Shown piece by piece: positions 2,407 to 44,581 of a DNA stretch of 64,000 bases. The position numbers were made by a program, and so were the translations under genes. This stretch comes from Steroidobacteraceae bacterium (GTDB lineage: Bacteria; Pseudomonadota; Gammaproteobacteria; Steroidobacterales; Steroidobacteraceae), in assembly GCA_035279135.1 (NCBI GenBank), contig DATEII010000125.1, positions 740 through 64,739 on the forward strand, given 5' to 3'. The notes beneath the pieces are model-generated. The model worked only from the letters and a program-made list of their open reading frames with translations, did not search any database and was not told where the DNA came from. Position 1 is the stretch's first letter. Every line of letters begins with the position of its first letter.

Positions 2407-2420
2407 GCAGAGGAGTCCAC

Positions 2421-6954: not shown

Positions 6955-6982
6955 TCGAAGCATCCGCCGGGGGAACTGCTGA

Positions 6983-8491: not shown

Positions 8492-8506
8492 GGGGATGGG
8501 CCGCCG

Positions 8507-9271
8507 CTAGCGGGTGGCTATCTTGCGCACCGAGGAGTATCGCCGCCGCTTTTCTGCGGCGATGGCGCGCGCCCGCTGGATTTCCTCGACCTCGGTGACT
8601 TTCAGCATGTCCTCGATCACGCGCGAGATGTGCTGGTGCATGGCAGCGCGGGCCGCCTCGGGATCTCGCTTCTTGAGCGCCCGCAGGATGGCGGCGTGTT
8701 CATCGATCGGGGGTTTCAGGCCGCGGGCGCGCCCCTTGTCGTCCATCGAATGACTCTGCGGTGAACGCGCGCGCGCATCCCACAACATCTGCACCGCGGC
8801 GATGATTCCGCTGTTCTGCGTCGAGCTCGCGATCAGCTCGTGGAAGCGGCGGTCCGCTTCCTCGCTCATGAGGATCTCGTTGTGCCGGTTGTCATCGCGC
8901 ATCTCGGTGATGAGACTCGACAGCTCGGCGAGCTGCGCATCGTCGATGCGCATCGCGGCGAGCGCAGCGGCCTCGCCCTCGATGGCGTGCCGGGCCTCGA
9001 GCAGTTCGAACGGGCCGATGTCCTTGGCGCCCTCGGTGCCGCTCGGCGGCTGCCGGTTCTTGACGTAGACGCCCGAGCCGAGGCGCACCTCGACCAGCTC
9101 GTCCAGTTCCAGCGCGATGATGGCTTCCCGGACCGTGGGTCGGGACACCTCGAAGGTCTGCGCGAGTTCGCGCTCCGAGGGCAGGCGCTGCCCGATTTCG
9201 TACTTGCCATCGGCGATGGCCTTCGCGAGCTTGCGCGCGATTTGTTCGTACAGACGCCGTGCTTCGACCAT
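8507..9271 (-). CDS. GntR-family (FadR/FCD subfamily) transcriptional regulator, probable hexuronate-locus regulator
   Basis: The ORF 8507..9505 was trimmed to ATG 9271 (MVEARRLYEQIARKLAKAIADGKYEIGQRLPSERELAQTFEVSRPTVREAI, a GntR wHTH). The C-terminal part is helical and FCD-like. Confidence 0.85.
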   Translation of the reverse strand: MVEARRLYEQIARKLAKAIADGKYEIGQRLPSERELAQTFEVSRPTVREAIIALELDELVEVRLGSGVYVKNRQPPSGTEGAKDIGPFELLEARHAIEGEAAALAAMRIDDAQLAELSSLITEMRDDNRHNEILMSEEADRRFHELIASSTQNSGIIAAVQMLWDARARSPQSHSMDDKGRARGLKPPIDEHAAILRALKKRDPEAARAAMHQHISRVIEDMLKVTEVEEIQRARAIAAEKRRRYSSVRKIATR

Positions 9272-9791
9272 GGGTGCGCAGTATCCGCGCAGCAGGGGCC
9301 CCCAACAAGGGCGGGCGTCACGGGCGGCTTCGCCGGAGTGCCTGTCAGGCCGGACATATTCCGCCTCCCTGACCAACCAGCGATACTGGTAAGGGTAATT
9401 CTTGATTTTGGCCTGACCAGTTTGGTACGGTGTGGCCGCGCGCATCGCATTGCGCGCCTCCAAGAGGGGATTCTGGATCCCGTCGTCGTGGCGGAGCCGG
9501 AACAATCCGCCGTGCGCCCGTTGCCGCGCATTTCACTCTAGGTTGAGTAGTTAGTCGTTGGTGCGCGCGTGCCAACGGTGTCATCCGCCCGCGTGTTGCC
9601 CGCCGGCCACGCCTGGTGTTTTTCCCGCTGTGTCCCGCATTTTTCGTGTTGTACGGAAGTTGTGCGATCGCTAACATCGTCGCCATACACCGGCGTGGCC
9701 TGGGATGCGCACGCCGGACGATCTAACTACTAACTGTCGGGGTCTTTCGCACTTTCGTGCGAAAACGAAATGGCCTGGAGGGGCGACGTCA

Positions 9792-12700
9792 ATGCAAAGA
9801 AAATCACCGTTATTCCAATTCACGTTCCTGGGATGTGTCGGCGCCGCCGGACTCATCTCGACGGGAGCCGTGGCGCAAAGTCAGCCATCCACGTCCGCTG
9901 GCGGGACGTCCGAGGAGATCGACGAGGTCGTCGTCACCGGCTTCCGCGCCTCGCTGCAGAGCTCGGTCGCCGCGAAGCGCGACAACATCAGCGTGTCCGA
10001 TTCGGTCTATGCCGAAGACATCGGCAAGTTCCCGGACCTGAACCTGGCCGAATCGCTGCAGCGCATTCCCGGCGTGCAGATCGCGCGCGACTTCACCGGT
10101 GAAGGCACTTCGGTCGCCATCCGCGGCCTGGGCAAGGACTTCACGCAGATCACGCTGAACGGTGCGCCGGTCGAAACCGCGTCCGACAGCAACATCGACA
10201 ACGTGAGCAGTGGCCGCGGGCTCGACCTCGTGTTGTTCCCGACGGAACTGTTCCGCCAGCTGACCGTCACCAAGACGCCGACCGCGCGCCAGATCGAAGG
10301 CGCCGTGGCGGCCAACGTCGACCTTCGCATCGCGCGTCCGTTCGACAACAAGGGCTTCCACGTCAACTACACGGCCAAGGGCAACTACCAGGAAGCGGCT
10401 GAAGACTGGAGCCCGCGCCTCGGCTTGTACGCGAGCAACACCTGGGAGACGGGCGCTGGTGAATTCGGCGTGCTCGGCGGCATCGCATACTCGGATCGCA
10501 AATACCGCTCTGACGGTTTCAACACCATCGGCTTCACGACGGTCGCGACGCCGGGTTGCCCGACCACGCAGGCCGGTTGCAACACGCGTAACCAGGCGAC
10601 CGGCGGCTATGGCAACGCCAGCCAGGCGTGGCCGACCACGGTGCCCGCTGGTTACAACTTTGGCGCCAACGGTGCGACCGCCGGCGGACCGCTGACGGTT
10701 TGCGGCCCGGGCAGCACGCCGGGCGGTACGTCGGGACTTTCCTGCAACGACCTCAGTTACGCGATCTGGCCGCGCCTCGCGCGTCCCGACTCGCTCGTGG
10801 GTGAGCGCGAAACCAAGTCGGCCATTCTCTCGATGCAGTGGGCTCCGAACGAGTCGCTGCAGTTCTACTGGGACAACCTGTACTCCGAGGCCGATCACCC
10901 CTACGAGCGCAACGACCTGAACCTCGCGGTTCGAAGCACCAACACCAACGTGCCGGTGGACGTGGAGCTCGACGAGAACCACGTCGTGCGGCGCGCCACC
11001 ATCGCGAACCCGGTGTGGCTCAACGAGAACCGTCCGTACCACGAAGACACGGACTTCATGAATTCCAACCTGGGCATGGAATGGAAAATCGGCGAGAAGT
11101 TCACGCTCGAGACGTCGCTGAACTACAACCACAGCAACTGGTTCCGTTCGACCAACACCTACCTGTTCAACTCGAACCTCAATACCGGCATCACGGTGGA
11201 CATCGAGGCTAACGGCGACGGAGTCATCAAGGTCACGCCGAGCCGTGACCTGAACGACGTCAACTTCTGGAACTGGAATGCCCTGCGCATCCAGCCGGTG
11301 CAGCGTGAGGTCTGGCAGAAGGGCGGTCGCCTCGAGGGTGAATATGCCTTCGCCGACGCCTTCAAGCTGGCCGCGGGCTACAGCGAGGACAAGTTCCACC
11401 GCGAGATCACCAACTGGGAAACCACCAGCTGCGCGACCGACGGCGGCAACGCCACCAGCGCCTCGGGACAGCAGTGTCTCGCCGCGCTGGCGGACCAGGG
11501 CATCCTGAATGCGAAACTGGCGGTGCCGAATGCGCAGCTCGGCCAGTACATGCAGACCTGGACGCACGGCGCGTTGTACAACACCTCGGACTTCGACGTG
11601 GGGCTGAACAACGGCTGGGCGCTGCCTAACTACAAGCTGCTCGACCCGGCCACGAACATCGACTTCTTCCAGGACGTGGTCGGCCGCCAGCGCGCCTATG
11701 GCAATGACGTCGCGGGCTACAACCCGCGCACGCTCGACGAAGACACCACGGGTGCCTTCATCGAGGCCAACGGCAAGTTCGACGTGCTCGACGGCTTCCG
11801 CTACAACGTGGGTGTGCGCCACATCGAGACCGACCAGATGGTGTCGGGCTTCGTGACGGTGAACACACCGACCGGTGCGGTCCGCCAGCTGCAGATCAAC
11901 AACGTCAGTTATGACAAGAACCTGCCCTCGACCAACCTGGCGCTCGAGTTCGGCCATGGCATCGTGGGTCGCGCGGCCTATTCGACCACGATGACCCGGC
12001 CGCAGCCGGGCGACATCGCGCCGAACGAGTCGCTCAGCGTGAACGGTGACATCCTCACGCGCGGCAACCCGGGTCTCGATCCGTACTTCTCCGACAACTA
12101 CGACCTGGGTGTCGAGTGGTACTTCGGCGAGTCGGGTCTCGGCGTCGTCGCGGTGAACGGCTGGCAGAAGAAGATCGAGGGTTACACCTCCATCGTCAGC
12201 ACGCCGACACCCTTCGGCCAGCTCGGCATCGACTACTCGACGCTGCCGATCGCGACGCAGACCGGCCTGCAGACCACCGCCAACGCGCAGTGTCTGTGCA
12301 CCACCGGCAATCCGAACGACGCCCTGGTGCGCGTCGATCAGCGCCAGAACACCACGGAAGAGATCACGCTGAAGGGCTACGAGGTGACCTACGTGCAGCC
12401 GCTCGACAAGCTGCTCCAGGGTCTGGGCTTCTCGCTGAACTACACGCACATCACGCAGAAGTCGGAAGGTGGTCTGCCGAACGCGCCGTCCAGCGCGGTC
12501 ACGGGCCTCTCGCCGTACACCTACAACGTCACGGCCTTCTACGAGAGCCATGGATTCTCGGGCCGTCTCGTCTACTCGGTGCGCGATACGTTCATCGACT
12601 TCCTGGGCAACAACGAGAACAACATCCAGGGTGACAACTACGCGCAGCAACGCAAGTACCTCGATGCTTCGTTCAGCTACAAGCTGCCGATGGAGACCAA

Positions 12701-12836
12701 CCTCTCCGTCAGCCTGGAGCTGCAGAACATCCTGAATGAGCAGCTGCTGACGTACTTCCGTGACGATCCGCAGACGCCGCGCGCTTCGTTCGCGCCCGGC
12801 CGCCAGCTGCTGATCGGTCTGGTGGGTTCGTTCTGA
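9792..12836 (+). CDS. TonB-dependent receptor (carbohydrate-type, in the xylan/uronate locus)
   Basis: ATG 9792 gives the signal peptide MQRKSPLFQFTFLGCVGAAGLISTGAVAQS. It has a TonB-box-like EEIDEVVVTGFR, a plug domain (NLAESLQRIPGV) and a C-terminal ...LLIGLVGSF. Confidence 0.92.
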   Translation: MQRKSPLFQFTFLGCVGAAGLISTGAVAQSQPSTSAGGTSEEIDEVVVTGFRASLQSSVAAKRDNISVSDSVYAEDIGKFPDLNLAESLQRIPGVQIARDFTGEGTSVAIRGLGKDFTQITLNGAPVETASDSNIDNVSSGRGLDLVLFPTELFRQLTVTKTPTARQIEGAVAANVDLRIARPFDNKGFHVNYTAKGNYQEAAEDWSPRLGLYASNTWETGAGEFGVLGGIAYSDRKYRSDGFNTIGFTTVATPGCPTTQAGCNTRNQATGGYGNASQAWPTTVPAGYNFGANGATAGGPLTVCGPGSTPGGTSGLSCNDLSYAIWPRLARPDSLVGERETKSAILSMQWAPNESLQFYWDNLYSEADHPYERNDLNLAVRSTNTNVPVDVELDENHVVRRATIANPVWLNENRPYHEDTDFMNSNLGMEWKIGEKFTLETSLNYNHSNWFRSTNTYLFNSNLNTGITVDIEANGDGVIKVTPSRDLNDVNFWNWNALRIQPVQREVWQKGGRLEGEYAFADAFKLAAGYSEDKFHREITNWETTSCATDGGNATSASGQQCLAALADQGILNAKLAVPNAQLGQYMQTWTHGALYNTSDFDVGLNNGWALPNYKLLDPATNIDFFQDVVGRQRAYGNDVAGYNPRTLDEDTTGAFIEANGKFDVLDGFRYNVGVRHIETDQMVSGFVTVNTPTGAVRQLQINNVSYDKNLPSTNLALEFGHGIVGRAAYSTTMTRPQPGDIAPNESLSVNGDILTRGNPGLDPYFSDNYDLGVEWYFGESGLGVVAVNGWQKKIEGYTSIVSTPTPFGQLGIDYSTLPIATQTGLQTTANAQCLCTTGNPNDALVRVDQRQNTTEEITLKGYEVTYVQPLDKLLQGLGFSLNYTHITQKSEGGLPNAPSSAVTGLSPYTYNVTAFYESHGFSGRLVYSVRDTFIDFLGNNENNIQGDNYAQQRKYLDASFSYKLPMETNLSVSLELQNILNEQLLTYFRDDPQTPRASFAPGRQLLIGLVGSF

Positions 12837-12864
12837 CGCGCCGGTAGTCTTTCGCTGCAATCGA

Positions 12865-12905
12865 TGAGGGGAAGCAACATGCGTTGCTTCCCCTCATCTT
12901 TTGTT
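12865..12905. terminator. Rho-independent terminator (possibly bidirectional) between convergent genes
   Basis: Perfect 14-bp stem TGAGGGGAAGCAAC / GTTGCTTCCCCTCA with loop ATGC, followed by TCTTTTGTT. Confidence 0.8.
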
Positions 12906-13004
12906 GGCGCTGTGCATCAAGGCGCATCCGCAACCTGGCAGAAGCAGGGCGCACAGTGTCACGCGGCACGTTTCGGTCAACGCACGCGGCCGTTTCCGAA
13001 TGGC

Positions 13005-13943
13005 TCAGCGCGAGTGCGCCAGCATCCAGGAGTAGACGTCGTCACCACCATACACGCGCACCCAGGTGAAGTGGCCCAGGTCTTCGTGATTCGTCAGGCG
13101 CGCGCTCGTGTGGCCCAGGGCTTCGAGCCGCTCGAACACGGCGTAGAAATAACGGGCGTTGACCACGTCGTCGCGTCCGCCCGAGAAACACCACACGGGT
13201 AGTTTGCTGCGGGCGATCGGTTCGGCATGCGCGGGATGGCCATAACCCACCACCGGTGCCACGGCCGCGAATTTTTCCGGATGGTTTGCCGCCAGGTACC
13301 AGGAGCCAAAGCCACCGTAGCTGAGCCCGGTGAGATAGACGCGCTTCGGATCGCCGCGCAGTTCGCGCACGGTGCGGTCCACCATGGCGACCAGCTCGTC
13401 GGCGATGAGGTTCCAGCCGTCCACCGGGCCTTCGGGGCCGTCGGGCAATTTGTCGTCGCGATCGGTGCCGCGCATGGGCGCATCGCGGCGCACGCTGCGT
13501 TCATCCGGCCTTGGATCCACGCCGTCGGCCCGGCGTTGCGGGATCTGTGCGCGCGTGCGGTTCTTTATGTAGTCCACCTCACCCTGGCCAAACATCGGCA
13601 GCTGTGGCGAGATGATGACGAACGGCAGATCGCGCTTCTGGCACCACGCCTCGTACAGCGGACCGTGCGCGAGCACGTAGTCGAGCTCACCCTTGCCGTC
13701 GCCGCGCTCGCCGTTCCCGTGCAGGAACAGCATCACGGGCCAGCTTTTCTGCTGTGCGTGGCCGGGCGGAAGATAGACGAAGTAGTCGCGCTCCTGGCCG
13801 GTGCGCGCGCTGCGGTAAGACACGCGTCGCAGCTCGGGCTGCGACGCGGGTTTCGTGGACGCTGCACCGGGCGCGGCGCGAACGCCGGGCGCGGCCGCGA
13901 GGCCGGCCGCGCCTGCGACCAGGAGTTCACGACGCGTGGTCAT
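13005..13943 (-). CDS. Secreted alpha/beta-hydrolase (COG4099-like esterase; probable carbohydrate esterase) with a Tat-type signal
   Basis: MTTRRELLVAGAAGLAAAPGVRA is a twin-arginine leader. The nucleophile elbow is GLSYGGFGS. The start overlaps the kdgK stop (ATGA), so the two genes are likely in one operon. Confidence 0.7.
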   Translation of the reverse strand: MTTRRELLVAGAAGLAAAPGVRAAPGAASTKPASQPELRRVSYRSARTGQERDYFVYLPPGHAQQKSWPVMLFLHGNGERGDGKGELDYVLAHGPLYEAWCQKRDLPFVIISPQLPMFGQGEVDYIKNRTRAQIPQRRADGVDPRPDERSVRRDAPMRGTDRDDKLPDGPEGPVDGWNLIADELVAMVDRTVRELRGDPKRVYLTGLSYGGFGSWYLAANHPEKFAAVAPVVGYGHPAHAEPIARSKLPVWCFSGGRDDVVNARYFYAVFERLEALGHTSARLTNHEDLGHFTWVRVYGGDDVYSWMLAHSR

Positions 13944-15046
13944 CGGATGACCCGCGCGCCCTTGCCCTTCATGACGGCCTCGACTTCCTTGACGTTGACC
14001 ATGGACGTGTCGCCCGGCGTGGTCATGGCGAGGGCGCCGTGCGCGGCACCGTATTCCACGGCTGCCTGCGGCCCCTTGCCCTCGAGGAATCCGTACGCGA
14101 GACCGGAGGCAAATCCGTCGCCGCCGCCCACGCGATCGTAGATCTCGAGGTCTTCGCGCATCATCGACTGGTAGAAGTTGCCGCCCGCGTACAGGATCGC
14201 GGACCAGTCGTTGAACGTGGCCGTCTTCGCATTGCGCAGCGTGGTGGCCGCCACCTTGAAGTTCGGGAACTGCTTCACCGCGGTCTGGATCATCTTCTTG
14301 AAGTTCGCGGGGTCGATCGCCGAGATGTGCTCATCGAGGCCTTCCACTTCGAAGCCGAGGCAGGCCGTGAAGTCCTCTTCGTTGCCGATCATCACGTCGA
14401 CGTACTTCGCGATGTTGCGGTTGATCTTCTGCGCGCCTTCCTTGCCACCCTGGCTCTTCCAGAGCGAGGCGCGGTAGTTGAGGTCGTATGACACGATCGT
14501 GCCGTGCTTGCGCGCGATCTCGACCGCCTCGATGACCGCCTCGGAAGTATTGGGCGCGAGCGCCGCGAAGATGCCGCCGGTGTGGAACCAGCGCACGCCT
14601 TCTTCGCCGAACAGCTTCTCCCAGTTCACCTCGCCGGGCCGGATCTGCGACGCCGCGGAATGCCCGCGATCCGAGCAGCCGAGCGCGGCGCGGATGCCGA
14701 AGCCCTTCTCGGTGAAGTTCAGGCCGACGCGCGTGTTGCGGCCCAGGCCGTCGAATTCGCGCCAGATGATCTTCGAGGTGTCGACGCCGCCCTGCATCAT
14801 GAGGTCCTCGACCAGCCAGCCGAGATCGTTGATCGGCAGCGCGGTGACCGCCGTGGCGCGTTTGCCCCAGCACTTGCGCATGGCGCGCGCGACGTTGTAT
14901 TCCCCGCCGCCTTCCCAGACCTGGAAGCTGCGCGCGTTGCGTACGCGGCCGAAGCCCGGGTCGAAACGCAGCATCACCTCGCCGAACGAGGCGCAATCCC
15001 AGCGCGTTTCCGCGGCCGACTTGATCTTCAGAACGTTGTCAGTCAT
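13940..15046 (-). CDS. kdgK: 2-dehydro-3-deoxygluconokinase (PfkB-family sugar kinase)
   Basis: 368 aa of PfkB/ribokinase-like sequence with DRVGGGDGFASGLAYG near the C-terminus. Located between eda and the esterase in the uronate locus. Confidence 0.8.
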   Translation of the reverse strand: MTDNVLKIKSAAETRWDCASFGEVMLRFDPGFGRVRNARSFQVWEGGGEYNVARAMRKCWGKRATAVTALPINDLGWLVEDLMMQGGVDTSKIIWREFDGLGRNTRVGLNFTEKGFGIRAALGCSDRGHSAASQIRPGEVNWEKLFGEEGVRWFHTGGIFAALAPNTSEAVIEAVEIARKHGTIVSYDLNYRASLWKSQGGKEGAQKINRNIAKYVDVMIGNEEDFTACLGFEVEGLDEHISAIDPANFKKMIQTAVKQFPNFKVAATTLRNAKTATFNDWSAILYAGGNFYQSMMREDLEIYDRVGGGDGFASGLAYGFLEGKGPQAAVEYGAAHGALAMTTPGDTSMVNVKEVEAVMKGKGARVIR

Positions 15047-35447: not shown

Positions 35448-35548
35448 TCTCCACCTCTCAAGCGCATCCTTAAGAAAACTTCAGGATCGTCCGGCATCCC
35501 GTGCCGCTCCACGCGACTACTCTTCGCGCATCGCAAGGAGGAACGACC

Positions 35549-36256
35549 GTGAGCCAACTGACCCGGCGTAGTTTGATCCAGGCCGCTGCCGTGGGGCCGG
35601 TACTGGCGGTTGCCGCGCAGACGACGACCGCACCCGCGAAAGACGATGCCCCGAGCGGTGCCGCATTCGCCTTCCAGCACACGCCCGTGCCGCTGCCTTT
35701 CGACCCGAAGAGCCTGCACGGCATTTCGGAAAAACTCATCCAGTCGCACTGGGAGAACAACTACGTGGGCGCCAGCAAGGCGCTGAACGTGGTGCGCGGC
35801 CGTCTCACGCAGGCGCTCGGCGATCCGAACACGCCGCCCTACGTCTACACGGGTCTCAAGCGCGAACAATCCCTGCGCACGGGATCCGTCGTGTTGCACG
35901 AGTTCTACTTCGGCAATCTCGGCGGCGACGGCAAGGCGCCGGCGGACCTGCGCACGCGTCTGTCGCAGTCCTTCGGATCCTATGACCGCTGGGAGAGCGA
36001 GTTCCGCAAGATTGGCCAGGGACTTGGGGGCGGCTCCGGCTGGGTGGTGCTCGGCTTCAATGAGCATCTCAACCTGCTGGAAAACTACTGGCTCGCCGAC
36101 CACGCGACCAATCCGGCGGACACGCGGCCCATCCTGGTCATGGACATGTACGAGCACGCGTACCAGATGGACTACGGCGCGGCGGCGGCGAAGTACATCG
36201 ACGCATTCTTCGCGAACATCCAGTGGGATGCGGTCGCGAAGCGATTCTCCGCCTGA
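35549..36256 (+). CDS. Fe/Mn-family superoxide dismutase with a twin-arginine (Tat) signal peptide
   Basis: GTG 35549 lies 8 nt after AAGGAGG. The leader is VSQLTRRSLIQAAAVGPVLAVAAQT. Metal-ligand contexts are present: QSHWENNYV, VVLHEFYF and DMYEHAYQMDY. Confidence 0.82.
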   Translation: MSQLTRRSLIQAAAVGPVLAVAAQTTTAPAKDDAPSGAAFAFQHTPVPLPFDPKSLHGISEKLIQSHWENNYVGASKALNVVRGRLTQALGDPNTPPYVYTGLKREQSLRTGSVVLHEFYFGNLGGDGKAPADLRTRLSQSFGSYDRWESEFRKIGQGLGGGSGWVVLGFNEHLNLLENYWLADHATNPADTRPILVMDMYEHAYQMDYGAAAAKYIDAFFANIQWDAVAKRFSA

Positions 36257-36264: not shown

Positions 36265-36645
36265 TCAGTGCGCGGGGTGCTCGGACGTGCGCGTGCCCTC
36301 GCGCGCGGGGCCCGCGCCGGACATGCGCCGGCACTCCTCCGCGCAGCGACGGCAGGCTTCCGCGCATCGCCGGCAATGCTCCATGTGCTGATGCCGCTCG
36401 CATTCCTGCGCGCACTCGTCGCACACCTCGGCGCACAGCCGGCAGAATTCCGCGGCGCTTTCATTGCCGCGCGCCATGAGAATGGTCGCGGTCCGGCAGA
36501 GCTCGGCGCAATCCAGGTCGAGCGAGATGCAGCGCACCAGCATCTTGACGTCCTGCTCGCCGAGGCAGGCACTGGCGCAGTGTTCGCATTCGAGCGCGCA
36601 GTCGTTGCAGGCTTCGATGCAGCTGCGCATGCTTTCCGGGTCCAT
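36265..36645 (-). CDS. Cysteine-rich four-helix-bundle metal (copper)-binding protein, DUF326 family
   Basis: ATG 36645 follows GGAGAA. The 126-aa protein has repeated C-x2/3-C-x3-C motifs (CIEACNDCALECEHCASAC..., CRLCAEVCDECAQEC, CRRCAEACRRCAEEC). Confidence 0.75.
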   Translation of the reverse strand: MDPESMRSCIEACNDCALECEHCASACLGEQDVKMLVRCISLDLDCAELCRTATILMARGNESAAEFCRLCAEVCDECAQECERHQHMEHCRRCAEACRRCAEECRRMSGAGPAREGTRTSEHPAH

Positions 36646-36843
36646 GGTGGTTCTCCTGTGAGCAAGGGCGGGGACGGACCCTTGGCAAATTGCCGCAGCC
36701 GGGCAATGGCAGGAATCGGCAAGCGGGTTCAACAGGTCTCGGGCAAGTCCCACGCGATGGCGCGGGCTGCCGTCCGTGACCCATCCGTAATCAGGGTCTT
36801 GCTAGCCTCGCGCTGATTCGACCCCGACAGCGAGGTCCCGCCG

Positions 36844-38934
36844 ATGCTGCTCCGCCAAGTCACGCAGAAGGACTGGAAGGCCTACGAACCCGCCGCCGCC
36901 CCGCCCGAGGTCGACCTCGCGGCCAAGGCGACCGATGCCGCGAAGTCCGAAACCAAGCTCGCGCGTCGCGAATCCTTCCTCACGGCCGACGGCCAGACGG
37001 CCACCGCGCTCGAACGCGAAGCCTTGTTAGGCACCAACGACCTGGTCGAGTGGAACTTCCTCGATCGCTGCATGTGCGTGTCCCGGCCGGTGGGCCGCAT
37101 CGTCGTGCCGCGGCCGAATGGGACTTTGCGCGCCACGGGATTCCTGATCGCGCCGGGCGTGCTGCTGACCAATCACCATGTGCTGAACGACGCCGGCTGG
37201 GCGGCGATGGCCACCATCGAGTTCGGCTACCGATACAACATCGCAGGCGAGATCGGCCAGGTGGAGATCTTCGATCTGGCGCCGGTCTCTTTCTTCGTCG
37301 CCGACGAGGCGCTGGATTTCGCGGCGGTGGCGGTGGCGCCGCGCTCGCGCACCGGTGCGCGCATCGAGGACTTCTCCTTCCTGCGGCTGCACGCCGAAAC
37401 CGGCAAGCTCACCCAAGGTGATTTCGTCACCATCCTGCAGCACCCGGATGGCGAGCCCATGCAGATCGCGCTGCGCGAGAACAAGGTGACCGAGGTGGAT
37501 CCGGACAAGCCGGTGATCTGGTACCACGCCGACACGGCGCACGGCTCCTCGGGTGCGCCGGTGCTCAATGACAGTTTCCAGCTGGTCGCGCTGCATTCAT
37601 CGGGTCGCATCCGGCGCGATGCCAACGGCAACTTCGCGCTGCGCAGCGGCAAGTTCGTCGCTTCGGTCGACGGCCTCAAGGATTCGGACGTGGTCTGGGA
37701 AGACAATGTCGGTGTGCGTGTCAGCCGACTGGCGCCCGCGATCCGCGCGCGCGCCGCCGCGAACTTCCCGCCTTACGCGGCCCTGCTCGACCAGGCGATG
37801 ACCGGCGGTGACGTGCTTGCCGACGCCATCGAGGCCGCGCGCACACAGGCGCGCACCCCGCCCACACTCGATACGCCGCGCGAGCGGGAGGCACGCACGG
37901 GCACACCGGGCGCACGTCTAACTACGCCCCGGGACGTGATCGTCCCCCTGCAGCTGCGCGTGTCGCTCGAATCGCCGGGCGCCGGCGCGGGCGCGGGCGC
38001 GAACACGATGCGCTCGTCGCTCGGCGACATGCTCGAAGCCTTCAAGATGCAGATCCCGGTCATCTACGACGACCTGCCGCATCGCAAGGGTTATGACCCC
38101 CACTTCCTGCAGCTCGGCGGCAACCGCAGGATCGCGCTGCCCCGGCTCACGCCCGCGGGCAAACAAGTCGCCGCGAAGCTGATCGGCAAGAGCAGCTACG
38201 AGCTCAAGTACCACAAGTTCTCGGTGTTCATGCACAAGGACCGGCGGCTCGCGCTCTTCACGGCCGCGAACGTGGATTGGAGCGAAGACGCGAAGGAGAT
38301 CGACGGCGAGAAGCCGACGCGCAAGGAGCTCACCGGCATCACCGACGACCACACCATCGAGCAGTGGGTACTCGACGAGCGCATCGCGGCCGAGCACCAG
38401 TTGCCGGACCGCTTCTACAACGACGACGGCAAGGCCTTCGACAAGGGCCACCTGGTCCGCCGCGAAGACGTCTGCTGGGGCAGGACCTTCGAGGACATCC
38501 AGAAGGCCAATGGCGACACCTACCACGTGACCAACTGCACGCCGCAGACGGAGCCGTTCAACCGCTCGGGCAGTGGCGACGAGAACTGGGGCGACTTCGA
38601 GAACGAAGTCGGCAAGCAATCGAAGAAGGAGCGGCTGATCCTGTTTTCCGGCCCCGTGCTCGATCCCAAGGACCGCTGGTTCCGGGGGTTGGATGACAAC
38701 GGCGGCATCCGCATCCAGGTGCCGCGCCGGTTCTGGAAAGTCGTCGTGGCGAAGGGGATGAACGGGCCGGAAGCCTTCGGCTTCGTGCTCGAGCAGGACG
38801 TCATCGCCATCACCGAGAAGGAATTCGTGGTGTCCCCGACCTGGAAGGCCCACAAGAAGAAGATCAGCACCATTGCCGGGTACTTGCGGGGCTGGGTGGA
38901 CTTCTCGGCGCTCGAAGCCATCGAAAAGCAGTAG
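36844..38934 (+). CDS. Fusion protein: trypsin-like (S1/Trypsin_2-type) serine peptidase domain plus DNA/RNA non-specific endonuclease (NucA/EndoG, beta-beta-alpha-Me) domain; no signal peptide
   Basis: The N-terminal half has VLLTNHHVLND (His), EALDFAAVAV (Asp) and HGSSGAPVLNDSFQLVALHSSG (Ser). The linker is PGAGAGAGAN. The C-terminal half has LKYHKFSVFMHKDRRLALFTAANVD, FDKGHLVRRED (DRGH-like), VTNCTPQ and NWGDFENEV. Confidence 0.85.
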   Translation: MLLRQVTQKDWKAYEPAAAPPEVDLAAKATDAAKSETKLARRESFLTADGQTATALEREALLGTNDLVEWNFLDRCMCVSRPVGRIVVPRPNGTLRATGFLIAPGVLLTNHHVLNDAGWAAMATIEFGYRYNIAGEIGQVEIFDLAPVSFFVADEALDFAAVAVAPRSRTGARIEDFSFLRLHAETGKLTQGDFVTILQHPDGEPMQIALRENKVTEVDPDKPVIWYHADTAHGSSGAPVLNDSFQLVALHSSGRIRRDANGNFALRSGKFVASVDGLKDSDVVWEDNVGVRVSRLAPAIRARAAANFPPYAALLDQAMTGGDVLADAIEAARTQARTPPTLDTPREREARTGTPGARLTTPRDVIVPLQLRVSLESPGAGAGAGANTMRSSLGDMLEAFKMQIPVIYDDLPHRKGYDPHFLQLGGNRRIALPRLTPAGKQVAAKLIGKSSYELKYHKFSVFMHKDRRLALFTAANVDWSEDAKEIDGEKPTRKELTGITDDHTIEQWVLDERIAAEHQLPDRFYNDDGKAFDKGHLVRREDVCWGRTFEDIQKANGDTYHVTNCTPQTEPFNRSGSGDENWGDFENEVGKQSKKERLILFSGPVLDPKDRWFRGLDDNGGIRIQVPRRFWKVVVAKGMNGPEAFGFVLEQDVIAITEKEFVVSPTWKAHKKKISTIAGYLRGWVDFSALEAIEKQ

Positions 38935-38980
38935 ATTCCGGGCCTTGCTAACCTTTTGACGGCCGCGCCGTCTTAGTTCC

Positions 38981-39514
38981 GTGCTCACCCTCCTCAAATC
39001 ATGGGTCCGGCCGGATGCCTTCCACGCCGTGCTCAACGAACGCAGCGTGCGCTGGTACAACGCCTGCCTTCGTATCACGCGCGACGCGGACCTGGCGGCG
39101 GACGCGGTCCAGGAGGCGCTGCTCAAGGCCTGGAATCATCGCGACGAGTTCCGTGGCGAAGCAGCGCTCGATTCCTGGATCCACCGCATCGCGCTCAACG
39201 CGGCCATCGACCTGACGCGCAAGCGCAGGCGCCGCGCCGAGGATGAGCTCGATCCGGAAACCGTCGAGGCGGGTCCGACTTCCTCCGCGGAAAGCCAATA
39301 TGTCGAACACGCGTTCGGCAAGGACCTGGCCACCGCGATGCAGCGCCTCTCCACCAAGGAGCGGCAGATCTTCCTGCTCAAACACGTCGAAGGCTGGCGC
39401 CTCGAAGAGGTGGCCGAAAGCCTGCAGATGCCCATCGGCAGCGTGAAAAACAGCCTGTTCCGCGCGGTCCGCAAGCTGCGCGTCGACCTTCAGGTCTGGC
39501 GAGGCGAATCATGA
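38981..39514 (+). CDS. ECF-type RNA polymerase sigma-70 family factor
   Basis: 177 aa with a GTG start. Region 2 is DADLAADAVQEALLKAWNHRDEFRGEAALDSWIHRIALNAAIDLTRKRRR. Region 4 is ERQIFLLKHVEGWRLEEVAESLQMPIGSVKNSLFRAVRKL. Confidence 0.9.
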   Translation: MLTLLKSWVRPDAFHAVLNERSVRWYNACLRITRDADLAADAVQEALLKAWNHRDEFRGEAALDSWIHRIALNAAIDLTRKRRRRAEDELDPETVEAGPTSSAESQYVEHAFGKDLATAMQRLSTKERQIFLLKHVEGWRLEEVAESLQMPIGSVKNSLFRAVRKLRVDLQVWRGES

Positions 39515-40221
39515 TCAACGACGACGAACTGCTGCTCTATCACTACCGCGAGCTCGACGCGGCCGACCGCGCGCGCGTCGGCGCGGCACTCAGCGCGCAA
39601 CCCGAGCTGGCGCAGCGGCTGCATGCGCTCGTCGCACGACTCGACGCGGCCGCCGCGATCCCCGAGGTCCCGGTGCCCGCGCAGGCAACGGAACGCTGGC
39701 GCTCGGCGCTCGATCGCGCCGCCTCGCAAACGCGCGCGAGCCAGCCGCCGCGCCGGTTTTCCATGCCGGTGATGTGGCAGGCGGCCGCGGCGGCCGTCAC
39801 GGTGTTCGCGCTGATCTTCAGCGTCCAGCGACTCCTGCGGCCCACCACGCCGGTCGCCGCCAACGAAACCATGACCCACGTCGAACCTGCGCAAGGCGAC
39901 ACGTCCGCGTACGAACATGGCCTGAAGTTCCATCTCGCGACTACCGAGCGGCGGCTGGCGGCGCTGGGTGAGGCGACACCGGAAGAACGGGCGCGCCTGA
40001 TCGACACCATCATCGGGCAGAACCAGATGTACGCACTGGCCGCGGAGCGTGCTGGTGAGCCGCAGCTGGCACGAGTGCTGCGCGCCTTCAATCCAATTCT
40101 CGAGGACCTGGCCAACGGTCGCAGCGAGACCACGGCGGCCGACATCTCGCAGCTCAGCTTCGAACTCCGGGTCATGCAGGCGCGGCTGGGTACCGGCGCG
40201 CGGCCCAACAACATTCTGTGA
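39511..40221 (+). CDS. Putative anti-sigma factor (single-pass membrane protein)
   Basis: ATGA overlap with the sigma gene. The N-terminal segment DELLLYHYRELDAADRARV is anti-sigma-like, there is one TM helix (VMWQAAAAAVTVFALIFSV), and a helical periplasmic part follows. Confidence 0.65.
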   Translation: MINDDELLLYHYRELDAADRARVGAALSAQPELAQRLHALVARLDAAAAIPEVPVPAQATERWRSALDRAASQTRASQPPRRFSMPVMWQAAAAAVTVFALIFSVQRLLRPTTPVAANETMTHVEPAQGDTSAYEHGLKFHLATTERRLAALGEATPEERARLIDTIIGQNQMYALAAERAGEPQLARVLRAFNPILEDLANGRSETTAADISQLSFELRVMQARLGTGARPNNIL

Positions 40222-40231
40222 CGAGGACACC

Positions 40232-41203
40232 ATGAACCACACGTTGACCCTGCTGATCGCCGCGCTGGCGCTCCATGGCACGGCGATCGCGCAATCTCCG
40301 CCGGCGGCCGTCAAGCCGCCTGCCGCACCCGCAAAAGCACCGGCGGCACCGCAGCCCGTGCGCGACGACGATCGTGAACCCACCGGCGACGAAGAGCTCG
40401 CGCTCGCGGCGCTCGAGGGCCTCATGGCGCAGCCCGGCGACCGGGCACTGCCCATCATCAAGAAGGTGCTGGCGGGCCCGCAGAGCACGCTGGTCAAGAA
40501 GCGCGCGTTGTTCGTGCTCAGCCAGATCAACTCGGCGGAAGCGCGGCAGTTGCTCGGCCAGGCGAGCCGTTCCACGGATCCGGCCTTGCGCGGCGAAGCC
40601 ATCCGCAGCATCGGAATCGGCGGCGATCCGCAACTGCTCGATTCCCTGCAGTCGATCTACAGCGCGGGCAGCGACGACGTGAAGGACGAGGTGCTGCAGG
40701 CGTGGCTCATCGCCGGGCGCAAGGAAGCGGTGTACAAGGCCGCACTCGACGCCAGGTCCGAAGACGAGGCGAGCCGTGCGATCCGCATCCTCGGCGCCAT
40801 GGGCGCGACCGAAGAGCTGCGCAAGCTCGGCGATCGGCCGAACGCGGCCAGCGGTCTCGTGGATGCGTATGCCATCAGCGGCGATCTCGCCAGCCTGCGC
40901 AAGATCGCGGATGGCAATGCCAACCACGACGTGCGCGTCGACGCGGTGCGCAAGATCGGCATCGTGGGCAGCGATGAGGCCCGCGCCGCGCTGCGTGACA
41001 TCTACACGCGCAACACCGACACGGACCTCAGGGACGCGGCGCTGCAGGGCATGCTGATCGCGCGCGACGAGCAGGGCGTGCTGGCGCTGTACCGCGCCGC
41101 CAGGACCAGCGAGGAGAAGCGCACGCTGCTGCGGACGCTCTCGCTGATCGATGGCGACGCGGCGCTCGAAGCCATCGACGCCGCGCTCGAGGGCAAGAAA
41201 TGA
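40232..41203 (+). CDS. Periplasmic HEAT-repeat protein
   Basis: ATG 40232 gives the signal peptide MNHTLTLLIAALALHGTAIAQ. A Pro/Ala-rich linker is followed by repeated HEAT/PBS-lyase-like units (..R..A..aLg.ig...a...L). Confidence 0.7.
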   Translation: MNHTLTLLIAALALHGTAIAQSPPAAVKPPAAPAKAPAAPQPVRDDDREPTGDEELALAALEGLMAQPGDRALPIIKKVLAGPQSTLVKKRALFVLSQINSAEARQLLGQASRSTDPALRGEAIRSIGIGGDPQLLDSLQSIYSAGSDDVKDEVLQAWLIAGRKEAVYKAALDARSEDEASRAIRILGAMGATEELRKLGDRPNAASGLVDAYAISGDLASLRKIADGNANHDVRVDAVRKIGIVGSDEARAALRDIYTRNTDTDLRDAALQGMLIARDEQGVLALYRAARTSEEKRTLLRTLSLIDGDAALEAIDAALEGKK

Positions 41204-42213
41204 GCACTAACTACCGGAAGATGGGACTGCTCGCATTGGCCATCGGCGGCATGACGCTCGTGGAGCTGGCGCCGGCACGCGGCGCCGAGCCGGAGCTGCC
41301 GCGCGACGGCTGGGTGAGCTGGCAGGTGCCCGCCGTCGACGACGCGCCCGCCTGGTGCTGCTTCAGCAGCTGGAACGATCGGGATTCCTCGCGCATGGTC
41401 TGCCGGCTCGATGGCGGCCCCGACGGATTTGGTATCCATGGCGGCGACAAGACCACGGATGCCGTGAAGGTGTATGCACGGACCACCGGCGGCAAGATCG
41501 ACCGTGTGCAGGCGCTCGCGGCCTCGTGCCCGGTCGAAACCAGGACACCGGTGCAGCCGCTGGACGATGTGTCCGCGCAGGAAAGCACGCAGTGGCTCGC
41601 GCGCCAGGTGAAGCAGGCCTCGAAGGACGCCGTCAGCGGCAGGCCGATCGGCGAGGGCGCGTTGGCCGCGCTCGCGCTGCATCGAGGTGACGGCGCTCGC
41701 GACGCGCTCTCGGGCTTCGCGCACGATCCGGATACCGAAACCCGAAAGGGGTCGGTGTTCTGGTCGGCGGTGTTGCGCGGCGCCGAGGGCGCCCGCATCA
41801 CCAGCTCCGTGATGTTCGGCGACGCCGATCCCGAAGTCCGCGAGCACGCCGCGTTCGCTCTCACGCAGTCGAAGTCGCCACGCGTGACCCAGGATCTCAT
41901 CCGGCTCGGCAATTCCGACGCGTCCGGCAATGTTCGCGCCAAGGCCTGGTTCTGGCTCGCGCAGACCGGCGCGAGCGAATCCGAAGCGGCGATTGGCGCC
42001 GCTGTACGCAAGGATCGAGATGACGAGGTTCGCGAGCAGGCGATCTTTGCGTTGTCCCGATTGCCCAACGAACGCGGCACGAAGGCACTGATCTCCGTCG
42101 CCGAGGACCAGTCACTCGCCCCTGAGCAGCGCAAGCGCGCCGTGTTCTGGCTGGCGCAGTCACAGACCGACTCCGCCCAGGCCTATCTCGAGAAAGTGCT
42201 GGCGCGGCGCTAG
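41200..42213 (+). CDS. Periplasmic protein with an N-terminal Cys-containing domain and C-terminal HEAT repeats
   Basis: ATGA overlap with the preceding gene. A signal-like segment LLALAIGGMTLVELAPARGA is followed by PAWCCFSSW...MVCRLDG...ASCPVE. HEAT-like repeats follow (EVREHAAFALTQS, NVRAKAWFWLAQT, EVREQAIFALSRL, QRKRAVFWLAQS). Confidence 0.65.
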   Translation: MSTNYRKMGLLALAIGGMTLVELAPARGAEPELPRDGWVSWQVPAVDDAPAWCCFSSWNDRDSSRMVCRLDGGPDGFGIHGGDKTTDAVKVYARTTGGKIDRVQALAASCPVETRTPVQPLDDVSAQESTQWLARQVKQASKDAVSGRPIGEGALAALALHRGDGARDALSGFAHDPDTETRKGSVFWSAVLRGAEGARITSSVMFGDADPEVREHAAFALTQSKSPRVTQDLIRLGNSDASGNVRAKAWFWLAQTGASESEAAIGAAVRKDRDDEVREQAIFALSRLPNERGTKALISVAEDQSLAPEQRKRAVFWLAQSQTDSAQAYLEKVLARR

Positions 42214-42307
42214 GACCCCGGGGCGAGTTTGCGCGAGGGTATAGGCTGAAGTCCGACAACTCCCGGTTACCGTTTCCTACGTCCAGCCCGGCACCGCATG
42301 GGGTCAG

Positions 42308-44581
42308 ATGGCGGCCCCGAAGAAGACTCCGGCCGCCCATCGCATGACCCCGTCCGTTCCGGCCTCCTGCTCGCTACTGCTTTGCACCCTCGTTGGTTTT
42401 CTGCCGCAGAACAGCGAAGCGGGCAACGACGGCTTGTCCGGGGCGGTGTTTCCGGAACTCGACTCGCAGGGCCTTGCGGTATCGCTGGGCGATGAGCAGT
42501 TCGCCTCCATCAATGCAGTTGATGTGGACGACCTCGTCAGGTTTGCACCCAACCTGTCTACCTCCAAGAGATTCGGAGGCGATGACAACGGGGTGGTTTC
42601 CCTGCGGGGTGCCAATGGCACCCAGAGCGCGCGCCTGCTCGTCATGGTGGACGGTTTCGTCGTATCGAATCTCCTGGGCAACTCTGAACGTTTTTCCCCG
42701 AAATGGGACATCGTCGGGCCGTCGGAAGTGGAACGCATCGACATCCTGTACGGTCCCTATTCGGCGCGGTACGGCGGCAATTCCATGGGCGGTGTCATCT
42801 CCGTAACGACGGGGGTACCTGCGGAGAGCGGCGGCTACGTGAAGCTGCAATCGCTTGCCATGCCGTTCTCGCAATATGGAGTCGACGAAACTTTCGTCGG
42901 GTACGGCGTCGAGGCCGGTGGAACGTGGAAACGCCCTTCGAGCCCGTGGACGATCCACGTCAGTGGTCGGCACCTCGAGAACACGGGTCAACCGACCACC
43001 TACTACCCGCTGGCGCCATCAATCGGCCCGTCGGTTCCCGTCGAAGGCGGATTCGATGATCCGCGTATTGCCACACCCGTATATGGAGCCATCTCGCCCA
43101 CGGAAATCGTTCAGGACCAGTTCCGAATGCGCGCCCGCTATGAATTCCGCAGCGGCTGGGACATCGAGGGGGTGTTCTTTGGATGGCTCACCGATCGCGA
43201 ACAAACCGACCCGCGCACTTTCCTGGCTGACCAGGCTGGCGAGCCCGTCTACGAAGGACGCGTGAATCTGGACGGCAACGTCTATCTCGCGAGCGCGCTG
43301 AAGCTCGCGGTCGCCTCGCGCAGCGAGTTCCTCGCCGGTATGAAGACCAGCGGGAAGTTAGGTGATTGGGACGTTCGGGCCAGCCTGTCCCGATACTGGA
43401 TCGATAGCGATGACACACGAATCTCGCTCAACCATTCGTTCGGCATCGCCAATCTGTCCGGAACAGAGGTGCTCCAGGACGATCCGGGCTGGTGGAACGT
43501 GGACGCTGGCCTGTCGCGCAACTTCGAGCGCCACCGCTTCGTACTGGGTTTCAACGCGAACCAGTACGAAACACGCGAGGCCGTGTTCGACACGGAGAAC
43601 TGGCGCACGGCGACACCCGCGTATTTCCGTTCGGAAAACTTCGGACGCTCGCTGAGCGCAGGCGTCTACGCCGAAGATGAGTTCACATTGACGCCGAACA
43701 GCTCCGCGACGATCGGCATTCGTGGTGATTGGTGGCGCGCTTACGATGGAGGCATCACGCAGGACACCGGCATCGTGTCGACCGATGTGTATCCCGAGCG
43801 TGAACACCAATCGTTCAGCCCCAAGCTGAGCTACCAGGCCCGGCTGGGTGAGGCCTGGGATGTCCAGTTGAGCCTCGGAGCCGCCACTCGATACCCGACT
43901 GTCGGCGAGCTCTTTCAGGGCCGGTTCAACGTCACCACGCGCTCCATCGACCCTGGCAGTTTCGATCCGGACCTGAAGCCGGAGCGTTCACGGGATGCGA
44001 ATCTGTTGCTGCGTTGGGCGAAGCGCGATCTGACCCTCACGTCGAGTGTCTTCTACCAGGAGATAGACGACTCGATCCTGCTCTTCCCGGCTCTGAACCA
44101 GTTCGGCGTCATCGTCACGAACTACAAGAACATCGACTCCATGAGGCAATACGGCATCGAGCTGATCGCCGAAGCCGAAAATGTGCTCGTCGATGGCCTG
44201 GACTTCGATGCGAATGTCGCGCGAACCGATGCCCGCACCTTGCGAAACTCCTGGGATATCGCCTCCGAGGGGGAGGAATTCCCAGGCGTCCCCGATTGGC
44301 GAGCCGGTGCCACTCTGAGGTACCGCGCCAGCGCGTATGTCAGCGCGTCGCTGGGCTGGCGCTATGCCTCGCGCGAGAACTCCGATCTGTCAGGCGTCTC
44401 GATCGGCGACACCTATGGCTTTCTATCGGGTTATTCGATGATCGACGCTCGGGTCAGCTGGAAGCCGCGCGATTCACTCGAGGTCAACCTCGGTGTCGAC
44501 AACCTGACCGATCAGAAGGCGTATGCCGTGTATCCCCTGGCGCAGCGCACGGCGTTTGCCGAATTCAAAATCGGTTTCTGA
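42308..44581 (+). CDS. TonB-dependent receptor (small, ~750 aa; metal/siderophore-type size class), atypical composition
   Basis: It has a plug domain (VVSLRGANGTQSARLLVMVDGFVVSN, IDILYGPYSARYGGNSMGGVISV) and a C-terminal AFAEFKIGF. An alternative start is ATG 42344. There are many A/T-ending codons compared with neighbouring genes. Confidence 0.85.
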   Translation: MAAPKKTPAAHRMTPSVPASCSLLLCTLVGFLPQNSEAGNDGLSGAVFPELDSQGLAVSLGDEQFASINAVDVDDLVRFAPNLSTSKRFGGDDNGVVSLRGANGTQSARLLVMVDGFVVSNLLGNSERFSPKWDIVGPSEVERIDILYGPYSARYGGNSMGGVISVTTGVPAESGGYVKLQSLAMPFSQYGVDETFVGYGVEAGGTWKRPSSPWTIHVSGRHLENTGQPTTYYPLAPSIGPSVPVEGGFDDPRIATPVYGAISPTEIVQDQFRMRARYEFRSGWDIEGVFFGWLTDREQTDPRTFLADQAGEPVYEGRVNLDGNVYLASALKLAVASRSEFLAGMKTSGKLGDWDVRASLSRYWIDSDDTRISLNHSFGIANLSGTEVLQDDPGWWNVDAGLSRNFERHRFVLGFNANQYETREAVFDTENWRTATPAYFRSENFGRSLSAGVYAEDEFTLTPNSSATIGIRGDWWRAYDGGITQDTGIVSTDVYPEREHQSFSPKLSYQARLGEAWDVQLSLGAATRYPTVGELFQGRFNVTTRSIDPGSFDPDLKPERSRDANLLLRWAKRDLTLTSSVFYQEIDDSILLFPALNQFGVIVTNYKNIDSMRQYGIELIAEAENVLVDGLDFDANVARTDARTLRNSWDIASEGEEFPGVPDWRAGATLRYRASAYVSASLGWRYASRENSDLSGVSIGDTYGFLSGYSMIDARVSWKPRDSLEVNLGVDNLTDQKAYAVYPLAQRTAFAEFKIGF

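Follow-up and report, generated by a model that had tools for sequence, protein, structure and literature searches.

In this study, we examined a 64,000-nucleotide stretch of DNA from a Steroidobacteraceae metagenome-assembled genome (MAG; contig DATEII010000125.1), referred to here as the window, and within it a single open reading frame (ORF) that encodes a trypsin-like protease joined to a nuclease of the NucA/Endonuclease_NS type. The ORF lies at 36844..38934 on the forward strand, as do all of the protein features given below, begins with an ATG start codon and encodes 696 amino acids. An earlier sequence-only reading had described one ORF of native, high-GC composition that joins two domains, and this description was borne out: coordinates and both domains are as proposed, and the GC content of the gene is 0.663 compared with 0.656 for the window, with a value of 0.89 at third codon positions. 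A 100%-identical protein (P0001) is on record from a Steroidobacteraceae MAG, where its sole annotation is 'DNA/RNA non-specific endonuclease'. The architecture is not new, having been published as a prediction in 2020 under the name of the NucA-trypsin, or NucA-peptidase, conflict system ('System 3'; Kaur, Burroughs, Iyer and Aravind, eLife 2020, PMC7159879). What we add is the size of the family, its usually solitary state, the residues that are invariant across it and a conserved motif in the linker between the two enzymes.

The analysis drew on two alignments of full-length homologues (37-91% identity), the first with 28 sequences and the second with 111, and each was used for an AlphaFold model. 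The 28-sequence alignment gave a predicted local distance difference test (pLDDT) score of 77.7 and a predicted template modeling (pTM) score of 0.47, and the 111-sequence alignment gave 84.6 and 0.65, respectively. Both models contain two confident domains with a disordered linker between them, and no further Pfam, PADLOC or NCBIfam domains were found in the protein. The N-terminal half opens with a variable, low-confidence region (residues 1-45, 36844..36978) that is poorly conserved in both alignments, scores pLDDT 31-54 and 46-77 in the two models and carries no signal peptide by hydropathy. There follows a conserved helical segment (residues 46-86, 36979..37101; FLTADGQxATPLEQEALLGTNDLVExNFLDRC...VGRI) that packs onto the protease with pLDDT 77-93 in the 111-sequence model; E57 and E59 are invariant in it, and L46, G50, D66, R75 and R85 are conserved in at least 90% of sequences. 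The protease domain proper (37102..37719) has a chymotrypsin fold and matches Pfam Trypsin_2 (PF13365) over residues 97-250 with an E-value of 1.4e-19. The three motifs named in the sequence-only reading, LLTNHHVLND, EALDFAAVAV and HGSSGAPV, are all present and contribute the catalytic triad of His112 (TNHHV, 37177..37179), Asp158 (LDFA, 37315..37317) and Ser236 (GSSGAP, 37549..37551), each invariant in the 111 sequences. The module is completed by a three-helix extension (residues 293-336, 37720..37851; helices 293-307, 309-320 and 324-333) that is modeled at pLDDT above 90 and ends in GGDVL, with A318, G322 and D323 conserved in at least 90% of the 111 sequences. By Foldseek, the nearest folds to the N-terminal half are the FAM111A protease domain and the staphylococcal Esp, V8, Spl and exfoliative toxin proteases (E-values of 1e-13 to 1e-10), and sequence matches of the protease domain in the PDB are to SplB and V8.

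The nuclease module spans residues 400-696 (38041..38931) and is modeled at pLDDT 89-98. It consists of a clade-specific N-terminal extension (400-449), an Endonuclease_NS core (PF01223, residues 450-659, E-value of 8e-29) and a C-terminal tail, and its closest fold by Foldseek is EndoG. The nuclease motifs of the sequence-only reading, FDKGHLVRRED, VTNCTPQ and NWGDFENEV, are likewise present and conserved. In the catalytic DKGH motif (38440..38451), K534, G535 and H536 are invariant, and H536 aligns to the general base H124 in the DRGH motif of Anabaena NucA (1zm8/2o3b); R539 and R540 are also invariant. Asn564 of TNCTPQ (38533..38535), again invariant, aligns to the Mg-binding Asn of NucA TNMMPQ and would bind the metal, and Glu586 of WGDFE (38599..38601), which is conserved in at least 90% of the homologues, aligns to the Glu of NucA NLE. 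Stand-alone nucleases of approximately 320 amino acids cover 95-99% of the module, the 400-449 extension included. Neither alignment shows a loss of catalytic residues, and the conservation of both sites in 111 homologues indicates that the two activities are under selection together.

Between the two enzymes lies a disordered linker of 63 residues (337-399, 37852..38040) that varies in length and in its alignment columns and is modeled at pLDDT 27-43 by both alignments. The Gly/Ala run that had been taken for the linker, PGAGAGAGAN (residues 378-387, 37975..38004), can be read directly from the sequence and forms part of this longer segment; throughout the family, G, A and P abound in the corresponding region. 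The linker also contains a conserved, strand-like motif, VPLQLRVSLE (residues 367-376, 37942..37971), which may be where the protein is cut or gated. Written as the pattern [ILV]P[LIV]x[LIV]x[IV][ST][LIV][E/G], it recurs in 165 fused relatives, including those with a divergent protease clade, always directly ahead of the G/A/P-rich spacer and preceding DKGH by 131-176 residues. P0130 and P0131, two relatives with the protease only, terminate 17 residues past the start of the motif. We considered whether the final Glu of the motif could serve as the P1 residue for a Glu-specific protease, an idea that is only partly supported, as this residue is E in 77/158 sequences and G in 41/158. Three metagenomic relatives (P0122, P0123 and P0124) carry a frameshift just past the motif and are truncated ahead of the nuclease; they had appeared to be a distinct protease-only architecture and are in fact frameshifted copies. 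These frameshifts may be sequencing errors or may mark inactivated copies, and inactivation would fit a costly or toxic gene.

By sequence criteria, the protein is cytoplasmic. A simple hydropathy scan detected no N-terminal hydrophobic segment and no transmembrane (TM) helix in the window protein or in any of 86 relatives, whose hosts are Gram-negative, Gram-positive and cyanobacterial, in agreement with the sequence-only reading, and the most hydrophobic stretch ahead of the catalytic His is nearly always a strand of the protease itself, ATGFLIAPGLL. The same is true of a copy on a Bacillus plasmid and of its M12 and M14 peptidase neighbors, none of which has a signal peptide. Pfam identified no trafficking domain (PAAR, LXG, Rhs or type IX secretion system (T9SS) C-terminal domain) on the window protein. 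The protein also does not have the features of polymorphic or contact-dependent toxins, lacking an N-terminal trafficking domain and, across 85 loci, a conserved downstream gene.

The family is far larger than the 45 organisms, mostly alphaproteobacteria, in which it was reported (PMC7159879), and in most cases the gene stands alone. Of the 157 relatives recovered by a word-based search, most of the 120 that were listed are proteins of approximately 700 amino acids with both domains. Using a profile from one of our alignments (A1) and one genome per species, we found the fusion in at least 575 species-representative genomes of about 10 phyla; a scan of genome contigs with the single window protein as the query gave no match, unlike the query built from A1. 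Hosts include Alpha-, Beta- and Gammaproteobacteria, Acidobacteriota, Planctomycetota, Bacteroidota, Cyanobacteria, Actinomycetota, Myxococcota, Chloroflexota, Verrucomicrobiota and others. An exhaustive HMMER search of 1.84 billion cluster representatives (50%-identity clusters) gave 958 matches at E<=1e-30; among the 150 best-scoring of these, almost every one covers both domains. Members were found on 55 plasmids, 21 of which are conjugative. A tblastn search of 50,697 phage records yielded no match to the family, and we rejected a phage origin on this ground, together with a weak PHROG match limited to the protease and hits to generic folds in a viral structure library.

Some relatives vary the basic architecture. 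A second, divergent trypsin clade, with the motifs TNRHV, DMAL and GGNSGSA, is the fusion partner of the same nuclease clade (52-57% identical) in Planctomycetota. Other relatives have gained an astacin, a Peptidase_C25, a Lipase_3 or alpha/beta-hydrolase, a second trypsin or a TPR-S sensor repeat, and split or stand-alone forms are found among S8, CHAT and trypsin genes. Two loci encode giant forms with several effector domains. At one (L039, 6183-10985), a 1599-amino-acid protein has a hydrolase-like N-terminus and a repeat region as well as two trypsin domains and the nuclease, and at the other (L030, 51-3056), an astacin-type HExxH metalloprotease is appended after the nuclease. The nuclease clade recurs in fusion with varied peptidases.

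The genes around the relatives show little in common. All-against-all BLASTP of flanking ORFs from 85 loci revealed no inhibitor-like or other conserved neighbor, and the largest cluster of flanking ORFs covers no more than 8 loci; the larger of these clusters were discounted, as they consist of antisense ORFs over the gene's own N-terminus or of local synteny among close Mesorhizobium relatives. The absence of an inhibitor gene noted in the sequence-only reading therefore holds both in the window, where the neighbors encode a Csp/DUF326 protein and an extracytoplasmic function (ECF) sigma factor, and across these loci, where neither neighbor is conserved. The 141 nearest genes match 158 Pfam families, none of them more than 3 times and several of them housekeeping (gyrA, fumarase), and the 135 second-nearest genes match 175 families, none more than 2 times. 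Some members are cargo of integrative and conjugative elements (ICEs), plasmids or defense islands, and individual settings clearly belong to mobile elements or conflict systems. One homologue lies on an ICE with a CTD12/MC8/DUF2326 system and type IV secretion system genes, another in an island with Bub, ThiF and ubiquitin-like genes, ImmA and AAA_21, a third beside a patatin gene, a fourth on a Nostoc plasmid with M57 and NACHT genes, and a fifth between the M12 and M14 peptidase genes of the plasmid mentioned above, which is from Bacillus cereus. In Sphingomonas guangdongensis, a three-gene unit lies approximately 3.4 kb upstream of the homologue (L006, 260-4614) and encodes proteins of 496 and 114 amino acids and an atypical Hsp70/MreB-like protein of 839 amino acids; Hsp70/DnaK-like fusions have recently been tied to protease-effector modules (PMC12642450).

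One locus, L094, is the most telling. Positions 1-14981 of a 4.27-Mb contig (contig_3768) form a dense conflict island with nSTAND1, EAD1, three EAD1-trypsin genes, pYEATS, a split trypsin/nuclease pair and a fused copy of 732 amino acids. Over both halves, this fused copy shares 37-38% identity with the window protein, which is homologous, then, to copies that reside in EAD1/nSTAND1 loci. The fused copy lies on the opposite strand to the overlapping pair. In that pair, a trypsin gene (440 amino acids) overlaps an Endonuclease_NS gene (326 amino acids) by 47 nucleotides, and the arrangement could be either a true split form or the product of a frameshift. EAD1 and nSTAND1 were seen in only 1 of 96 loci, and CHAT in 3 of the 96. 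The L094 island would be a natural site for studying a cascade version of the NucA-trypsin system.

In the window itself, the gene has a plain setting. A Cys-rich Csp/DUF326 gene, predicted to encode a four-helix bundle like that of copper storage proteins, lies 198 nucleotides upstream on the opposite strand (36265-36645), and an ECF sigma gene begins 46 nucleotides downstream; the distances and the strand had been given correctly in the sequence-only reading, which allowed that the upstream gene might be convergent, whereas it is divergent. A tRNA-Thr gene, placed at 1.4 kb, is found 1397 nucleotides upstream. We rejected a tRNA-linked genomic island: an integrase, a second copy of the tRNA 3' end and a shift in composition are all lacking, and the same synteny is kept in a relative of 81% protein identity (L090). 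Domain and hydropathy scans of the locus, which includes Csp/DUF326, superoxide dismutase, ECF sigma, anti-sigma, HEAT-repeat and TonB-receptor genes, identified no second peptidase, EAD1, STAND or TM segment. A protein with an Fe/Mn superoxide dismutase C-terminal domain and a long N-terminal extension is encoded on the forward strand at 35501-36256, and this gene and the Csp/DUF326 gene, beside the tRNA-Thr gene, suggest a small neighborhood concerned with metals and oxidative stress. Downstream, a cluster of genes on one strand (38981-44581) encodes the ECF sigma factor (38981-39514), a putative anti-sigma factor with weak NCBIfam matches (39511-40221), two HEAT-repeat proteins (approximately 40232-41203, and 41200-42213) and a TonB-dependent receptor (42308-44581), followed by a heavy-metal-binding HMA gene on the opposite strand. 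The cluster looks like a cell-surface-signaling or metal-related ECF unit, and its sigma, anti-sigma and HEAT portion is syntenic in L090, where the protease-nuclease gene is likewise followed by the 46-nucleotide spacer and then by the ECF sigma gene, the anti-sigma gene and two HEAT genes. No terminator-like site was found in the 46 nucleotides between the protease-nuclease gene and the sigma operon.

Two short repeats also connect the gene with its downstream neighbors. The 10-mer TTGCTARCCT occurs exactly twice in the window, where 0.03 copies are expected by chance. One copy, at 36799-36808 on the forward strand, lies 45 nucleotides before the ATG of the protease-nuclease gene and the other, at 38945-38954 on the same strand, 36 nucleotides before the GTG of the ECF sigma gene; both copies are conserved in L090. 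The sigma-gene copy reads as an ECF promoter (TGCTAAC, 16 nucleotides, CGTCT), whereas the protease-nuclease copy has AGC in place of AAC and no CGTC at the proper spacing. Control of the protease-nuclease gene by an ECF promoter is thus not supported, and some regulation common to the two genes through the 10-mer may be possible. Separately, an exact 19-nucleotide direct repeat, CGGCGCTCGAAGCCATCGA, is present at 38906-38924 and 41160-41178, at the 3' ends of the protease-nuclease gene (ALEAIE) and of the first HEAT-repeat gene (ALEAID); it could have arisen by chance in coding sequence of high GC content or may be left over from recombination.

Any reading of this gene has to address how a cytoplasmic, non-specific nuclease is restrained and switched in the absence of an inhibitor, a sensor domain or a partner gene. 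The reading that we find best supported, and to which we give about an even chance, is that the window gene stands alone as a single-chain representative of the NucA-trypsin conflict system, in which a latent cytoplasmic nuclease is licensed by the attached protease and the linker with its motif is the likeliest gating point. On this reading, the protein would be held in the cytoplasm as a latent enzyme until a trigger turned on the serine protease; candidate triggers are an invader-derived signal, a cascade coming from another peptidase, or stress. The target of the protease would then be either the flexible linker or the nuclease module, of its own chain or of another copy, with VPLQLRVSLE as the likeliest site, and the His-Me nuclease of the EndoG/NucA type would be freed or unmasked. 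Non-specific degradation of nucleic acid would follow, stopping the invader at the cell's cost. That the enzyme is latent, that it is cut and where, what sets it off and that the outcome is immunity or suicide are all inferred. A bolder version, in which the solitary fused protein is a complete and autonomous one-protein immune or suicide device that uses its own protease, perhaps with the variable N-terminus, as the sensor and cuts at or near VPLQLRVSLE to release the EndoG-type nuclease, strikes us as rather doubtful. Were it true, the protein would be the first proteolysis-gated pro-nuclease of the His-Me (EndoG) family and the first single-chain protease-nuclease effector without a separate sensor, and would amount to a bacterial fusion of a trypsin-fold protease with EndoG, enzyme types that mitochondria release in apoptosis.

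The logic of a protease-licensed suicide effector had already been put forward in the sequence-only reading. It survives as the best-supported interpretation, in keeping with the published prediction and with the precedent of trypsin-activated metallo-β-lactamase (MBL) nucleases, and is qualified in that it was already in the literature and in that the association with defense genes is sporadic and confined to a minority of neighbors. Several observations weigh against it. Using PADLOC models at E<=1e-10, approximately 3-5 of the 141 nearest genes (a few ABC-ATPase, subtilase and helicase genes) and 8-10 of the 135 second-nearest genes gave matches, the latter comprising a type I restriction endonuclease, a ThsB-like TIR protein, a PD-T4-6 kinase, two CapP/M78 proteins, DolB and PDC candidates; these are raw counts with no matched control, and we therefore claim no enrichment. 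Many loci, including the window and L009, are plain chromosomal or housekeeping contexts. No system-specific model in PADLOC-DB v2.0.0 matched the protein, the sole match being of RT-Protease_XI to the protease domain (E-value of 1.5e-7), and Pfam identified no recognizable sensor domain in the solitary form. The gene is held in stable vertical synteny beside an ECF sigma operon in this lineage, which is unlike the fast turnover typical of defense genes. Regarding the linker motif, which would be the most likely place for cleavage or gating, its variable last residue means that a single cleavage specificity is not obvious, and AlphaFold docks it nowhere (pLDDT 32-43), even with 111 sequences. 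Finally, we found no experimental work on the family in the searchable literature.

Other explanations bear on the same data. Protease and nuclease could be independent toxic activities that are simply delivered together, controlled by transcription or oligomerization, perhaps through the adjacent ECF sigma factor, with no cleavage of linker or nuclease. EndoG and Serratia nuclease are regulated by dimerization, which offers a general precedent for such control, and the undocked linker motif, together with a pTM of 0.65 from the deep alignment that suggests a defined two-domain body, fits a protein that is not cut. Proximity to the sigma operon, the lack of a terminator-like site in the spacer, the synteny kept at 81% identity and the pair of 10-mers, one upstream of each gene, lean the same way, as does the gain of other effector-like enzymes (lipase, astacin, C25) by relatives. 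Yet the neighborhoods show no link to ECF sigma genes beyond this lineage, and the 10-mer upstream of the protease-nuclease gene does not have the AAC and CGTC features of an ECF promoter. The repeated pairing of the nuclease clade with peptidases, whether fused, split or in multi-peptidase proteins, argues for functional dependence over co-delivery. Moreover, an unrestrained non-specific nuclease in the cytoplasm would be lethal, so that some post-translational restraint is needed. We consider independent dual toxicity unlikely.

If control lies in proteolysis, the question is whether the attached protease exerts it. The fused protein might instead be a downstream executioner that is activated in trans by unlinked peptidases or NTPase sensors, such as EAD-coupled trypsins, caspase/CHAT proteins or STAND proteins, along the lines of the proteolytic cascade proposed by Kaur et al. 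(PMC7159879). The co-occurrence of the fused gene with EAD1-trypsin paralogues and nSTAND1 at L094, the CHAT, S8 or trypsin genes near some members and the lack of a recognizable sensor in the solitary form would all be explained. A mere substrate would, however, have no need of its own fully conserved triad, EAD1/nSTAND1 and CHAT are as rare among the 96 loci as reported above, and no such genes lie near the protease-nuclease gene within the window; activation solely in trans is, in our judgment, quite improbable. It is also conceivable that the enzyme acts outside the cell, released by non-classical export or by lysis to degrade protein and DNA for nutrition, biofilm remodeling or competition. 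The closest characterized relatives of both domains are secreted (V8, Esp, Spl and the exfoliative toxins on one side, Serratia nuclease or Anabaena NucA on the other), a survey of His-Me finger nucleases guessed at a role in virulence or secretion for Trypsin_2-Endonuclease_NS fusions (PMC5714182), and some neighbors are peptidases, peptidoglycan-binding proteins or T9SS-tail proteins. Against this stand the absence of a signal peptide, lipobox-like sequence or TM segment in 86 members, the equally leaderless Bacillus copy and its M12/M14 neighbors, the lack of a trafficking domain, a downstream immunity gene or any conserved neighbor, and the embedding of one homologue in an intracellular EAD1/nSTAND1 conflict locus. 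We regard an extracellular role as very unlikely.

Licensing by the attached protease is therefore the interpretation that we carry forward, and it has consequences beyond this locus. Proteolysis-gated death effectors were recently shown to be a major logic of bacterial immunity, but only for MBL nucleases, pore-formers and hydrolases that are wired to explicit sensors. With the NucA-trypsin family, this logic would reach the EndoG/NucA fold, that of the apoptotic executioner nuclease of eukaryotes, and a minimal one-protein format. In practical terms, the window gene is better annotated as a probable conflict or suicide effector than as a nutritional non-specific endonuclease.

Comparison with better-known proteins places the two halves in context. 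The closest solved folds to the N-terminal domain are those of the S1B proteases (V8/GluV8, Esp, SplA-F and the exfoliative toxins) and of FAM111A. Activity in the S1B group depends on N-terminal processing or autocleavage, as seen in pro-Esp structures, and by analogy a zymogen-like control through the N-terminus or the linker is plausible in the window protein. Unlike it, these relatives are secreted pro-peptide toxins or a eukaryotic nuclear protease, and identity is only 16-18%. The C-terminal domain shares with Anabaena NucA, Serratia nuclease and EndoG a beta-beta-alpha-metal core in which the DxGH His, the TNxxPQ Asn and the Glu align. Those enzymes are secreted, compartmentalized or paired with an inhibitor (NuiA, EndoGI), whereas the window protein has neither signal peptide nor inhibitor gene; similarity to NucA is low (E-value of about 2e-3), and the window clade is tied to a protease and has a conserved extension of its own, of about 50 residues (400-449), at the N-terminus of the nuclease.

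The nearest mechanistic precedent is found in systems in which trypsin-like proteases cleave and activate gated MBL pro-nucleases, as described for Hachiman (HamMAB), AVAST/Avs1, Lamassu, DRT and others (Tuck et al., Science 2026, PMC12799240; see also Evans et al., bioRxiv 2025.11.14.688446; PMC12642450; bioRxiv 2025.09.03.673762). There, as here, a trypsin-like protease is paired with a non-specific DNase that needs to be kept silent in the cytoplasm, and in those modules the pair co-evolves and a cell-killing nuclease licensed by proteolysis has been demonstrated experimentally. The nuclease is an MBL hydrolase in those systems and of the His-Me finger/EndoG type in the window protein; EndoG and Endonuclease_NS go unmentioned in three of these papers (PMC12799240, PMC12642450 and bioRxiv 2025.09.03.673762). 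The MBL nuclease is also encoded by a separate upstream gene and its protease is fused to a sensor or core protein (HamA, Avs, LmuA, DRT), in contrast to the one sensor-less polypeptide described here. Gating loops with conserved Ile cleavage sites are defined in the MBL nucleases, and in the window protein the findings in this regard are limited to the linker motif and the clade-specific 400-449 extension.

The closest counterpart is the NucA-trypsin system itself. The sequence-only reading had recognized no named defense system, a view that does not hold, as the architecture was named and described in 2020, and a specialist in conflict systems would recognize it at once. Earlier surveys merely listed the domain combination (PMC2605481; PMC5714182), and the name has since been cited again in eLife 2021 (PMC8195603); in the searchable literature it is used only in the two eLife papers, both from the Aravind laboratory. 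Kaur et al. described the components as fused or encoded in operons, sometimes with S8 peptidases, EAD1-trypsin paralogues and STAND or Death-like components, the core also occurring without EAD1, and predicted computationally that proteolysis deploys the nuclease (PMC7159879). The window gene differs in being solitary, without the second peptidase, EAD1, STAND or TM segment that are optional elaborations of the system, and in its host, a gammaproteobacterial Steroidobacteraceae MAG as opposed to an alphaproteobacterium or a known multicellular organism. The family also differs in known extent, with 45 published organisms against at least 575 species genomes in about 10 phyla here, mostly with the gene alone. 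The two agree in several respects. Each has a NucA domain of the HNH (His-Me) superfamily with an intact active site and a trypsin-like peptidase, which in the window protein is in the same polypeptide; the relatives also include the published variants, in which S8 peptidases or others, EAD1-trypsin paralogues and STAND NTPases take part; a homologue 37-38% identical to the window protein lies inside an EAD1/nSTAND1 locus of the kind that Kaur et al. described; and the mechanism proposed is the same, both predictions holding that the nuclease would be deployed by proteolysis.

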